This document shows, one piece after another, positions 21,042 through 28,256 of a stretch of 64,000 nt of DNA; the first letter of the stretch is position 1, and each line of letters begins with the position of its first letter. A program made the position numbers and the translations under genes. The notes beneath the pieces were generated by a model that searched no databases, had not been told where the DNA came from, and worked only from the letters and a program-made list of their open reading frames with translations. Where the stretch lies: the NCBI RefSeq assembly GCF_054482595.1, contig NZ_CM137008.1; one strand, 5' to 3'.

Positions 21042-22151
<1,110 letters not shown>

Positions 22152-22266
22152 TGAGGGACGTATTTGTATTAGTCGCGACTTGATCTGACACATGGCCTTG
22201 AAAGGTTGAGAGTTACCGGTTTTGATATGAGTGTCGAATCCTTATCCAAAACAAGAGGTAACTCTC

Positions 22267-22638
22267 ATGCTTCATACTGCCAATCCCGTCATCAAACACA
22301 AAGCCGGTTTGCTCAATCTGGCTGAAGAACTCAGCAACGTATCAAAAGCCTGTAAAATCATGGGCGTTTCGCGTGATACGTTTTATCGTTACCGCGAACT
22401 GGTCGCTGAAGGCGGTGTGGATGCGCAGATTAATCGTAGTCGCCGCGCTCCTAACCTTAAGAACCGTACCGATGAGGCAACTGAACAGGCTGTTGTTGAT
22501 TACGCCGTCGCTTTCCCGACACATGGTCAGCACCGGGCCAGCAACGAGCTGCGTAAACAGGGGGTTTTTATCTCCGACAGTGGTGTCCGTTCTGTCTGGT
22601 TACTCCATAACCTTGAGAATCTCAAAAGACGATACTGA
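22267..22638 (+). pseudogene. ylbG: truncated transposase-like HTH protein (ylbG-like)
   Basis: 123-aa product from ATG 22267 with AAGAGGT RBS; HTH segment (MGVSRDTFYRYRE) typical of IS transposase N-termini; no catalytic domain follows. Confidence 0.6.
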
Positions 22639-22648
22639 ACAAATTTTA

Positions 22649-22786
22649 TCAGGTGACGTTCCGTAAAAAGTTGTATGGAGTTCTCGATGCAGTCGGCGCG
22701 ACTATCAGTACCCCCGCTGAACCCTGGACTATCGGGCCGCCGTACTGGGGCATGTCACCCTGGCGTGCCGCTGGTTTTCCGCTAAT
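22649..22786 (-). pseudogene. relic of an rhs 5' end (start codon ATT)
   Basis: Minus-strand translation [26 protein letters not shown] matches rhs N-terminus [26 protein letters not shown] at 27827; diverges after about 30 codons, stop at 22649. Confidence 0.55.
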
Positions 22787-23152
22787 GGTTTATTTCCTCT
22801 TTCTTTCCCGGCAAGAATTTATTTTAATCCGGAAGGATTATTTATTTTCAGATAGGGACTCACATTAAACACGTAACATTTTAATTAATGCATGGCTGAA
22901 TATGTATTACACAATGTCAGATATCGTAAAAGACCAGTGCAATTCTATGTAAACTCTCTGACTGTTCATTTTATTTGTTGCTTCAGGGTCGGAACTCACC
23001 CTCAATAAACAACTGAATACGAGTAGATATTCATCGTCTGAGCTATATGGCTTTACACAATAGCCGACATGTCTTTTCTCAGTCAGGATTTTTACTTTTC
23101 CTCACTACGAAGTTGACGACTTCGATATGGGATAGACTCTTAATTCAAGCAA

Positions 23153-23644
23153 TTACTCTGCACAAGCATCAGGCAATCCAGCTCCAATATTTGTTATAAA
23201 ATAATGCGTAACATTAATTTCACCAACAAAAAAAAGATTTACGCTATCCCCTTGCCCTGGTATTTTACCATATTTACACCACACTTTTTTTGTATCTGGA
23301 TCATTCTTTGATACGATTTTCGCCACTTGTTCCCTGGCCCTCACCGTCAATGTTTTCTTAAACCTCCCCCCATCATCGATTGTTAGGGAAAAATAAGAAA
23401 AAAAATAATCATCTTCTACATTTGTGGATATTGATATATCCACCGCTACGTGCGGAAAAAAATCTGGGAGCCATGTAAAAACTCCATCATTTTCTGGTAT
23501 TGCCATATAGTTTATGTAATGCTTACTTACAAGAGATTCATCTTTGTGTAAATAAAGATAAGTAGTCACGCATAAAAAAACAACGATTATAATAGCAAAA
23601 ATAAATATTACCATCTTTGAGATGTTACTTGAGATAGCCACCAT
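23153..23644 (-). CDS. putative Rhs immunity protein, N-terminal membrane anchor
   Basis: 163-aa AT-rich ORF whose ATG lies 20 nt inside the rhs 3' end; hydrophobic N-terminus ([15 protein letters not shown]). Confidence 0.7.
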
Positions 23645-26600
23645 CTTGTAAAGCCTTTATCGTTTTTTTATGCTCTGGATTAATATAATCAATACATCTA
23701 TTTGAGCAATCTTGTGTTAATGGACATGTCAACCCATGTTCATTTACAGCCAAGTCTTTTTTATTATCTTCAATCATCTCAGAATGGGATAACTTTACTT
23801 TTCTGCCGTACATACCGAACATATTTAACCCGTAATCTCTAATCTCTTTTTCATAACCCAGCCCTTTCGCCGATCGGCTAACACCAGCGTCATTTAATTT
23901 AGACACTCGACAAAATGCCATACAATGGAAAAATTGATCAGTCCCACCTAAATTTAATCTCTTCATATCATCATAAGTATCAGATAATATATCCCATGCT
24001 CTTTGATGGTTTAGTTGTTCTTTTTTTCGCATTAACGCTACATCTGCAGGACTTAACCCTAATGGATCAATACCATTCACCGGATACGCATACAGACTCC
24101 ATCCCCCCGCCAGCCCAATCGGGTCCTGAGTAATATATCGTCCCAGCAACGGATTGTAGTACCGGTTCCGGTTATAATACAGCCCCGACTCCTCATCATA
24201 CTGCTGCCCTGGCAGACGGTACGGCTGATACACATGATGCGGGTTCTCCTCATTAAGCTGGTTGCCCCATTCATCATATTCCGCGCTCCACGCCGTATTG
24301 CCGTCTTCGCTGATAAGCGCCAGCGGCAGTCCCCGGTGGTCGCAGTGATAAAGATGAGCTTTTCGCGCCGGTGTGTATTCCGGCTCCACCTGTCTGGCCA
24401 GTTGCTCCACCGTCAGCCCGCACTGCGCAAGCCACGCCCGGCTTTCACTGCTCACGCGGTCTGCCCGGATTTCTTCCTCCAGTCTGTCCAGCAGCCGCAC
24501 CAGTTCAGCCGGAAATACCACGCCGTGCCCGTCCTCGCTCCCTTCCTGCTGCAGCTTCTCCGCCAGGCTGCGGCGCTGCGCTTTCTCCCGCTCGCCGTTG
24601 TCTGTTTCGATGCGGATGAGCGGCGCGAAGCTCCCCGGCTGATATACCGTCTGGATACGCGTGGTGTCGGTCTGTACCGTCGTCAGCCGGTCGCCGTCCC
24701 ACCCGTACCACGTCACCTCCGGTTTCCGCGACAGCGACATCCATCCCGTCAGGTCACGCTCGCGACGCCACACCCGTTTCCCTGTCCGGCGACCCAGCGG
24801 GTCGTAAAGGTATCGGCTCTCGACCAGCGGCTCCTCATATTGGATACGGATGTAATGGACCAGGCGGTGCAGGCTGTCGTAATGGTAGTGATGGGTGCGC
24901 TCGTCGTCCGTCCGTATCACACCCGCCGGGATGCGGTCCGTCTTCTCCGTCAGTCTGCCGTATTCATCGTAGTGGTAAACATAGTGCGCATCCTTCGCGA
25001 TGCGGTTATCCGGCCACACTGTGAGGGTACTGTCCGGGTGCAGCTCCGGGTCCGGCAGGCGGTTTCCCGCCGGGTCGGTGGCATACGGGATGCGGATGTC
25101 CAGGTCCGGTGCGAGGGTACGCACGCTCTCCAGCCTGCCCGTGGCGCTGTAGCCGTATTCCCGCGTCTGTCGCGGGCCGCTGATGCGCACCAGGTCGCCG
25201 TTGTCATTCCACCCGTAGTCACGGTCATACACCAGGCTGTTCAGGTGCTGGCTCTGTAACTGGCCTGCGGGGGTGTATGTGCTGGTCAGTTTATATGCGG
25301 CATTACTGCCTGCCATGCTGCCAAAGCTGCGCACCGTCTCCCGGTGCATGCGGTCGCGCGTGTACTCCAGCAGCGGCGTGTCGCCAAGCTTCATGCCCGC
25401 CAGATAACCGCTGCCGTAGGTCAGCCACTCCACCGGCGGCAGGCTGTCCGGCGTGACGCGGTTTGCCAGCCCCTGTTCGTTGTAGGCGTGTGTTGTCTCA
25501 TGCTGCCACAGCAGTTCCCCCGTCTCCGGGTTCTCCACCGTCTGCCGTTCGCCGGTCAGGCGGCCCTTATCGTCGTAGCCGTAGTGGACAGCGACACGGT
25601 GGCCTTCGCTCAGGTGGCTGATGTCTGTCAGCCAGCCGTGGTCATCATACTGCCACTGCTCTGCCGGTTCGCCGTTCACCGTGCGGTGAGTGATACGGTC
25701 CGATTCATCGTAGTACCAGAGGGTGACAAGCCCCTCATCTTCACTCTGCGTGAGTTTTCCGGTCAGGTCATAATGATAACGCTGCGTCCGCCCGTCAAAG
25801 CCGCCCTGCTGTACCAACCGGTCCAGCGCATCGTAGCTGAAGTCGCTGTGGCTGCCGTTCTCGTTAGTCAGACTGATGACACGTCCGGCAGCATCGTACT
25901 CCATACTGCGCGTCAGCCCGCCCTGCGTGGTGCTGACCGCCTTTCCCCACGCATCGTACTGTGTCTCGCTCCGGTTGCCGTCCGGGGTGATAACGGCAGT
26001 CAGGTCGCCTGCGGCGTTGTACTCATACTGCGTTTCACGGCCCTGTGCGTCTTTCACCGAGGTTAACCGGCCACGGTTGTCATAGTGGCGGTAAAGGCTG
26101 ATACCTTCCTCGCGGTGAACCGCCGTCATCTGGCCGAAGCGGTCGTATTCATAGCGGGTCTGGTAGCCCGAGCAGTCGGTGAACGCCAGCAACTGACCGT
26201 AGCGGCTCCACGTCATCTGCCGGGTGCTGCCCGTCGCATCTGTTGTCGTGGCCGGTAATTCACTGTGCGCATCATCATAGCGGTAGCGTACTGTCTCCCC
26301 GCTGCGCGATGTCTCCGTTACCAGCCTGTCCAGTTCATCATATGCCCGGCGGCTCTCCAGCCCGTCCGGGGACACCACCGCCGTCAGCTGGTTCCCGTCG
26401 TTATAGTAAAATTTCGTCTCCCGCCCGTCCGGTGTGGTGATGTCCGTGATATCGCCGGACACCACATTCAGACCGTACTCTGTCCGCCGTCCCGCCGCGT
26501 CCGTCTGCGCCGTGAGCCTTCCTGCCGCGTCATACCCGCTGTGCGTGACGCTGCCATCCGCCAGTTCTTTTTTCACCACCCGTTTCAGCCCGCCTTCACC

Positions 26601-27827
26601 TTCTGTATGCAGCACCTCACGCCGGTTCAGGCTGTCGGTGACGGTGATGCGGTCCTGCTCATACTGGTAGCGGTAACTCAGGCCTGCCGGGTTAAGCTGC
26701 TCCACCACCCGCCCGGTATCGTCGTAGCGGTAGCGCATCTCCGGCCTTCCCGCATAACGGTGCCCCACCATCCGGCCCGGGTGCTGCGCGTCATACGTGA
26801 AAGCGCGCACCTGTGTCCCGCTGCGGTCATATACCGCCAGCAGTTCACCGGCTTCCGTATACGTGTACCGCGCCAGTGGCGCTCCGGGCAGGCTCTCCGG
26901 GTATGCCGGGTCGTGCATCAGCCACACCGCCAAAAGGCGGATACCCCTGTCGGGGCCGTATTCGGTACCGGGCAGTGTGTCGGGGAACGCTGAGGCTGAG
27001 AGAGGGCGGGGTGTGTCAGGGGAAGATAAGGAAGCGGTGCGCTGTTTACGGGCCTCTTCCGCACGCTGCGCCTGCGTGGTCAGCACCAGACGGAACTCCC
27101 GCCCGGCACCGTCCGTCACGCCGGTGATTTCCCCGGCCAGGTCACCGGCGGCCTCACGCCGGTACGTCAGCGTCCGCCCGAAGCGGTCTGCCAGCCCGGT
27201 AAGCACCCGGTACGGCGGCAGCGGCGCTGGCAGTACGTCCTCAGCACCCGGCACCAGCTCTGACCACCCCAGTATCCACCACGGCCCCTGTGCGCTGTTG
27301 GTCGCCAGGTAAAGATGCGGGCTTAACCGGATATCCGGCGGCAGCGACGCCCACAGCCGTGCCAGCGTATGGCCGTCCGGCTGCGTTGCCTTACCGCCAC
27401 GCACCAGCCACAGGGACTCGCTGCGGCTGTACACCGCCTCACCCGGCAGCAGCGGCTCAAAGTGAATGCTCCGTCCGCCGTTGTCGTTGAGTACCAGTGC
27501 ATCATCGCGTATCTGTAAGCGGATATCAGAAGGCGCTTTCCAGCCGGGGCCAAAAATCCCCACCGGTGCAGGCGTCTTCGTCCGGTAGCTGCTGTAGGTG
27601 CGGGAGAGAATGAACGGCAGCGGGCCGGGCAGCGCAAGGTCCGTCTCGCCGGGCAGCACCTTCGCCCCCAGCAGCGGATTTACCGGGTTGCCCGAAGTCA
27701 TCCCGCCCGGACACACCGAGCACGCCACGCCAGTTGGCGCGCCAATTCTTACACCTGCCGAACCCTGGACAATGGGACCGCCATACTGAGTCATATCTCC
27801 CTGACGCGCCGCTGGTTTTCCGCTCAT
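23625..27827 (-). CDS. rhsD: Rhs-family polymorphic toxin: PAAR-like N-terminus, YD-repeat core, variable C-terminal toxin domain
   Basis: 1400-aa ORF; many YD repeats; core ends at [10 protein letters not shown] (about 24045-24060) followed by about 143 aa of AT-rich unique sequence; sits between ybbP and selU. Confidence 0.92.
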
Positions 27828-28256
27828 ATAAAGTGCCCTTTTAGTTATTGTTCATATCCCTGTGTTAGCAACAAAAAAAATAAAATGACACACAAGACCA
27901 GCTAATGTATTTATATATTTTTCACATAAACTTATTTGTTCTCAATCAACAACAACTGTTATTACAGGTCACTTTCAATATTTTATTAAACTAACATTTT
28001 TAGCACAGATGAATTCATCATCAACAAATTCACTATATGGATAATATCCATTCAACGCATATGATTTATGATTTTATTAGTCTGAGTTATTTTTGTAGGG
28101 CTATATTTAAAATCAATAAACTCCACCGATTCAGATTAATATCAGCAATAGAAAGATAGGAAATCACCAATTCAATAACATCATCAATGAAACATATTGT
28201 AGAATTAATTTAAACAAGGCGTTCCATTCAACCAGAACGCCCCTTATTTACTCTCA

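Follow-up and report, generated by a model that had tools for sequence, protein, structure and literature searches.

The window, by which we mean the whole stretch of 64,000 nucleotides that was analysed (contig NZ_CM137008.1 of assembly GCF_054482595.1), carries on its minus strand, at positions 22690 to 22786, the first 32 codons and one base of an rhs gene, deprived of its start codon. The explanation that accounts best for this relic, and which we hold to be probably correct, is that it represents a dead second rhs gene, fused to the wreck of an IS481-family element by an illegitimate deletion, the two pieces being those known in E. coli K-12 as ylbI (b4632) and ylbG (b0502). The relic is a non-functional scar, of an ordinary genomic kind, and not a new element; both it and ylbG were catalogued before in K-12, and nothing in them is new in kind.

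The window covers the E. coli rhsD region, in reversed orientation compared to K-12, with the gene order ...glxR-hyi-gcl-allR-allA / allS-mnmH(selU) / ylbG / relic / spacer / rhs-adjacent gene / rhs / ybbP-ybbA.... Over positions 22100 to 23200, strain XH990 is 100% identical to the window. Comparison with empty-site strains delimits a variable island between mnmH (selU) and ybbP, at 22159 to 28250 (no strand assigned). In one such strain, XYEH3783, the backbone homology to the window stops at 22158 and restarts at 28251, and about 230 nt of REP-like repeats are found between mnmH and ybbP. The mnmH-ybbP site is a hot spot for toxin cargo, and in E. coli it was seen in at least four alternative states (window 22159-28250; L009, L010, L011): the rhs island, the empty site with REP-like repeats of XYEH3783, a dinQ-like type I toxin gene in RM9872-C1 and, in U14A, a 2-kb gene annotated tssD (Hcp) with three DUF2931 genes behind it.

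The resident, full-length rhs gene of the island (23625 to 27827, minus strand, 1400 aa) occupies the rhsD locus, and the relic is paralogous to its 5' end. Its N-terminus contains a DUF6531 domain and a weak match to the PAAR motif. Directly downstream lies a 163-aa gene (23153 to 23644, minus strand), presumably the predicted immunity gene, which corresponds to the K-12 pseudogene ybbD. When K-12 was aligned with the window over 23153-24293 (L002 6999-9131), an insertion of about 985 nt was found in K-12, made of the rhsD tip, ybbC and the start of ylbH, and about 212 nt at the 3' end of the core aligned two times. The full-length rhs of the window strain still bears the ylbH-type tip, and the ybbD-type gene there is intact, whereas both are pseudogenes in K-12. 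This difference between the two rhs arrangements is a textbook case of C-terminal displacement.

The relic itself was identified by translation, codon comparison and blastn. Translated on the minus strand from 22786, it matches the resident Rhs N-terminus at 24 of 26 residues, or at 28 of 32 when 32 residues are considered, and its first codon is ATT where the resident gene has ATG. Homology to rhs stops at 22690, in codon 33, and no similarity is found from codon 33 on; in the upstream direction, a weak similarity to rhs ribosome-binding regions reaches about 22804. A first reading, made from the sequence alone, had described a near-copy of the rhs N-terminus with an ATT start that diverges after some 30 codons, and both points hold, the homology ending at codon 32/33. 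In a blastn search of 28 Gb of E. coli genomes, the relic matched nothing but rhs 5' ends (E = 1e-9 to 1e-17), and the 50 nt beyond it matched an IS481 family transposase gene; the comparison of the interval with other E. coli rhsD loci recovered the same arrangement, ylbI/ylbG of K-12 included. The sequence of the relic and of its junction, with the ATT codon, is identical in K-12, XH990, FT130, H9Ecoli and one metagenomic contig.

With an ATT start and a homology that is lost in codon 33, the relic does not qualify as a functional Rhs toxin gene. No DUF6531/YD-repeat core, toxin tip or immunity gene comes after it, and its frame continues as antisense IS481 transposase sequence. Neither is it an orphan rhs-CT/immunity cassette, being a 5' end only. 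Its homology to the Rhs N-terminus and its position, that of K-12 ylbI between ybbD and ylbG, place it among rhs 5' fragments. In MG1655 (NC_000913.3), the homologous 96 nt are annotated as pseudogene ylbI (b4632, 529497-529592), and the neighbouring 123-aa ORF, ylbG (b0502), bears the label 'putative DNA-binding transcriptional regulator'. In other strains, PGAP annotates ylbI and ylbG both as incomplete pseudogenes, and the ylbI extent in RefSeq/PGAP is the same 96 nt. A literature search on ylbI, b4632 and RhsD with IS481 returned only an entry in a promoter catalogue (PMC3946193), to which we come back below.

The neighbour of the relic is an IS481-family remnant made of two pieces. The ends of the element were defined by comparing two intact copies of about 1.22 kb (L006 and L007). 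The left part of the remnant (22165 to 22631, plus strand) comprises the left inverted repeat, the leader and the first 122 or so transposase codons, and is 96% identical to these intact copies over 468-470 nt (22164-22631). The left inverted repeat, TGTATTAGTCGCGACTTGATCTGACA, has an exact match at 22165-22190, and a search that allowed up to 3 mismatches found no right inverted repeat in the 64-kb window. The ylbG ORF (22267 to 22638, plus strand, 123 aa) had been described in the sequence-only reading as transposase-like and HTH-only, and the search against IS family profiles proposed there assigned it to the N-terminal part of an IS481-family transposase: its best NCBIfam model is NF033577 (IS481 family transposase), matched at positions 2-112 of 284 with E = 2e-25, and its Pfam domains are HTH only (HTH_29, E = 2.9e-20, and HTH_32). 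The NF033577 score, 89.9 bits, lies under the 224-bit cut-off for full-length proteins, the ORF covering the N-terminus alone. With full-length IS481-family transposases the ORF shares 91.8% amino-acid identity.

The second piece, 69 nt long (22623 to 22691, plus strand), derives from the transposase interior (codons ~277-299 of 347; L007 2829-2897). It is out of frame with ylbG and abuts the relic. It translates as QKTILNKFYQVTFRKKLYGVLDA, the intact transposase having HKTILNEFYQVTFRKKLYGDLDT, and is 81-84% identical to L005, L006 and L007 and 94% identical to an intact copy on plasmid NZ_OY856300.1. Between the two pieces, about 460 nt of the transposase gene have been deleted, the junction, at about 22624-22631, showing microhomology over a few bases, and the frameshift caused by this internal deletion brings about the ylbG stop. 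The DDE catalytic domain is incomplete: besides these ~460 nt, the gene has lost its 3' 144 nt, and all that survives distally is 23 codons, out of frame. Of the two terminal repeats (TGT...ACA), only the left one is present. As most of the catalytic region and the right repeat are missing, this IS481 copy is unable to transpose. The two pieces fit different variants, the 5' one being 96% identical to L007 and 86% to L021, and the 3' one 81% to L007 and 94% to L021. Judging from these identities, they could stem from a mosaic IS481-family element, from two different copies, or from an unsampled variant. A sub-threshold match to the Rfam family psRNA2 (RF02349) was also recorded at 22093-22264 on the minus strand (31.1 bits against a gathering threshold of 65, E = 3.5e-5, full model length); it reaches from the 3' end of mnmH across the left inverted repeat of the IS481 element into the leader.

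At the point of fusion, IS-derived DNA runs up to 22691 and rhs homology down to 22690; a short string that the two have in common (CAGTCGG/CAATCGG) leaves an uncertainty of a few bases. The rhs relic and the transposase gene are convergent, the stop of the relic frame, at 22649, lying 10 nt from that of the ylbG ORF, and within the IS the fusion point falls 144 nt short of where an intact transposase gene has its stop. A deletion or insertion made by a transposase leaves an IS terminus at the junction. Here the endpoint at 22690/22691 is an interior position of the transposase gene and not a terminal repeat. Because the relic is joined to the transposase interior, with no IS terminus in between, the event was an illegitimate deletion, by which the IS lost its right end and the rhs gene all that lay beyond the stub. 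The truncation was probably microhomology-mediated.

The sequence-only reading had suggested a deletion mediated by the IS, and on this point it has to be corrected. That the IS481 transposase truncated the second rhs, by adjacent deletion or by insertion, would agree with the presence of an IS481-family remnant directly against the relic. Moreover, on the mnmH side the intact left repeat starts 6 nt inside the island edge, and an event at the IS end may have shaped that edge. However, the rhs-side junction falls in the transposase interior, the right inverted repeat is missing, and the IS itself has been damaged twice. A transposase-mediated origin is already contradicted for the rhs-side junction, and as a whole this explanation is very unlikely. 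An illegitimate deletion remains our preferred account of the junction.

The distribution of the arrangement bears on where the fusion was made. The full mnmH-ylbG-relic-spacer arrangement is present in 2723 of the 5426 complete E. coli genomes. In this set, the spacer that separates the relic from the rhs-adjacent gene is found at the rhsD locus only, and in none of the 5426 genomes is it followed by an intact rhs. Three candidates were discarded. Strain FT130, the sole full-length match to a chimeric query (spacer, relic and rhs core), has instead lost an internal part of its main rhs by deletion; in H9Ecoli, 33 nt that match the relic leader exactly belong to the same locus after an IS1-associated deletion; and in E32, where the match ends inside ylbG, the relic has been removed by an IS3 insertion/deletion. 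The 22-nt rhs::transposase junction had a single match among 100,044 species-representative genomes, in a scan for exact matches with one genome per species, by which diverged copies would be missed. This match is on an E. coli-like contig, CASFSC010000074.1 (L013), mis-binned as Alistipes. The contig, 4 kb long and taken from an 'uncultured Alistipes sp.' bin, is 97% identical to window 21518-24293, and since this is E. coli mnmH-ylbG-ylbI-rhs tip sequence, the Alistipes bin is contaminated or mis-binned.

One could propose that the rhs stub and the IS481 fragment were fused elsewhere and arrived together as a passenger, no second rhs having ever stood at the rhsD locus. The IS481 left repeat does form the island edge, and related IS481 copies are mostly found on plasmids and islands. 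Nevertheless, we regard such an arrival as very unlikely: among the 5426 genomes the spacer and the relic occupy a single chromosomal locus, the plasmid matches are only chromosomal records that were mis-assigned, and no donor configuration was detected.

Upstream of the relic, the spacer extends over 366 nt (22787 to 23152, minus strand) and stands out by its AT-rich composition (32-40% GC). It is presumed to be the former promoter and leader of the lost rhs gene. An entry of the genomic SELEX catalogue of Shimada et al. (2014, PMC3946193) places a constitutive RpoD promoter, detected in vitro, between ybbD and ylbI, and this fits with a former rhs promoter region. A simple consensus promoter scan of 22100-23700 gave no sigma-70-like site on the relic strand, and no Rfam family matched the relic itself.

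The same catalogue entry might be taken to mean that the relic region was kept for some function, as an antisense-to-ylbG transcript, a small peptide, or a homology anchor for rhs cassette swaps, and the invariance of the relic among the strains inspected, as well as the presence of a 34-aa ATG-initiated ORF at 22649-22753, would go in the same direction. We give this possibility very little credit. The flanking non-coding spacer is equally conserved (99.5%), so that the invariance of the relic reflects recent common ancestry and not selection. In addition, the region is freely lost, through IS1 or IS3 insertions with adjacent deletions; the relic itself has no Rfam match; and past codon 32 its frame is antisense transposase sequence. 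Slightly more doubtful still is a domesticated regulatory or small-protein locus, in which the dead 5' end would retain a working promoter and leader and would yield a ylbG-antisense RNA or a peptide of 34-45 aa. The frame of the relic is 45 aa long from the ATT, and 34 aa long from an in-frame ATG at 22753. This predicted 34-aa ORF (22649-22753, minus strand) opens at the ATG of relic codon 12. On the opposite strand, a terminator-like hairpin, GGCATGTCACCCTGGCGTGCC, with a T-rich tail behind it, was noted at 22749-22769 (plus strand), antisense within the relic and downstream of ylbG; the P13 codon change of the relic adds to its stem. Two terminator-like sites were counted in the region against a shuffle expectation of 1.1, which is not above that expectation.

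What kind of gene the relic comes from can be approached through its divergence. Over codons 1-32, it differs from the resident rhs at 20 of 96 nt (~21%), and 16 of these differences are at third positions, a marked enrichment (binomial P = 2.5e-5 versus the expected 1/3). Only four codons change the amino acid (M1I, T13P, R27L, G29V), in keeping with the many synonymous third-position changes claimed at first sight of the sequence. The identity of the relic over these 96 nt amounts to 79% with the resident rhs, 78% with K-12 rhsD, 74-77% with rhsA/B/C, and 83% with the rhs found at the asn-tRNA island of strain H5. Among themselves, rhsA/B/C/D and the asn-tRNA-island rhs are 78-89% identical. 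The relic has the motif GGPIVQG, of the rhsD/H5 type, rhsA-C having GGSIVQG. The 44 nt upstream of the relic are unrelated to the upstream region of the resident gene (15/44 identical), and a purine-rich, RBS-like stretch is all that the 20-44 nt upstream of the relic have in common with the resident leader. As far as can be read from the DNA, the predominance of synonymous changes and the GGPIVQG motif indicate that the relic derives from a diverged, once-coding rhs paralogue that was evolving separately, and that its sequence was not copied recently from the 5' end of the resident gene. It is hardly credible that the resident rhsD 5' end was recently copied, by partial duplication or gene conversion, and that the copy has since decayed into the relic, as orientation, locus and a nearly identical peptide might suggest, for the third-position bias of the ~21% differences speaks for divergence under purifying selection and not for neutral decay, the relic is no closer to the resident rhs than to the asn-tRNA-island rhs, and the upstream regions are unrelated.

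The relic peptide, lengthened with resident sequence, was also compared with 5.8 billion proteins; none of the Rhs N-termini among the matches carried the P13/L27/V29 residues, and the best matches were ordinary Rhs N-termini at 95%. Since these residues are absent from the Rhs matches, the relic is not assignable to a living lineage. The proposal of a lost second rhs gene, made from the sequence alone, is upheld inasmuch as the dead 5' end of a non-resident rhs is found beside a transposase fragment. That the lost gene was full-length is what we infer from the 97 nt of the relic and the region upstream of it.

Returning to the loss of a second rhs by illegitimate deletion, the following order of events would account for the present state of the locus. 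The island would once have carried two rhs genes in tandem, the second one downstream of the resident rhs-immunity pair and in the same orientation. This second gene would have had its own AT-rich upstream region (22787-23152) and would already have been ~20% diverged from rhsD-type genes. An IS481-family element would have inserted at the mnmH-side edge of the island, or formed that edge. It would thus have been placed between the second rhs, or what came after it, and mnmH, with its left end a few nt past the mnmH stop codon. A first deletion, beginning at codon 33 of the second rhs, would have taken in the right end of the IS and reached the distal portion of the transposase gene, leaving two convergent genes fused tail to tail at 22690/22691. 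A second deletion, of ~460 nt, would have taken away most of the remaining catalytic region and produced the HTH-only ylbG. The decay of the start codon to ATT may have come later, or may have occurred already earlier.

The significance of these observations is small, as the relic is a catalogued pseudogene of the best-annotated bacterial genome. What is added is a clearer account of how the rhsD locus came to be, in which the IS left end now marks the island edge. Whole-gene loss takes place at rhs loci as well as the shuffling of 3' tips, and the 'putative regulator YlbG' is a transposase stump.

Among known systems, the closest is K-12 MG1655 itself, where ylbI (b4632) and ylbG (b0502) stand at the same locus, ybbP-rhsD...ylbI-ylbG-selU/mnmH, with an identical relic and an identical junction. 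K-12 differs from the window only upstream of the relic, the window being without the rhsD-CT/ybbC cassette of K-12. The IS copy can be compared to IS481 reference elements, which are about 1.22 kb long and encode a 347-aa transposase (WP_256878404.1, E. albertii pEA13_3; WP_125265101.1, E. coli P707_1). It resembles them by its exact left repeat, its leader, its first 122 codons (96% DNA identity) and its 23-codon distal piece (94%); unlike them, it is without most of the catalytic region and without the right repeat, and its pieces best fit different sampled variants.

Like the relic, orphan rhs-CT cassettes are rhs fragments that lie downstream of a full-length rhs and share its orientation. 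In the C-terminal displacement model (Jackson et al. 2009, PMC2935791), recombination within the core gives rise to such cassettes, which consist of the 3' core, a toxin tip and an immunity gene. The relic differs from them in that it is a 5' end, without core, tip or immunity gene, and was made by deletion into an IS. In searches of that paper by term, we found no mention of an N-terminal fragment, transposase or insertion sequence.

The sequence-only reading had held that 5' ends are not the usual remnants at rhs loci. The relic is indeed a 5' end, but it is not the only rhs 5' remnant of this kind, as a 77-aa Rhs N-terminal stub of Salmonella enterica, a widespread 5' remnant with an N-terminal peptide of the same family as that of the relic, exists in thousands of assemblies. 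In the Salmonella enterica chromosomes L018-L020 (7001-8310), the 77-aa Rhs ORF overlaps a 67-aa Ntox34 tip ORF, after which comes a HEAT-repeat gene, and this arrangement is indexed in 4919 blocks of the collection. It suggests a large internal deletion within one rhs gene. The Salmonella stub is thus directly followed by a toxin-tip ORF and a HEAT-repeat gene, whereas the relic runs into the interior of an IS481 transposase gene and has no 3' end left.
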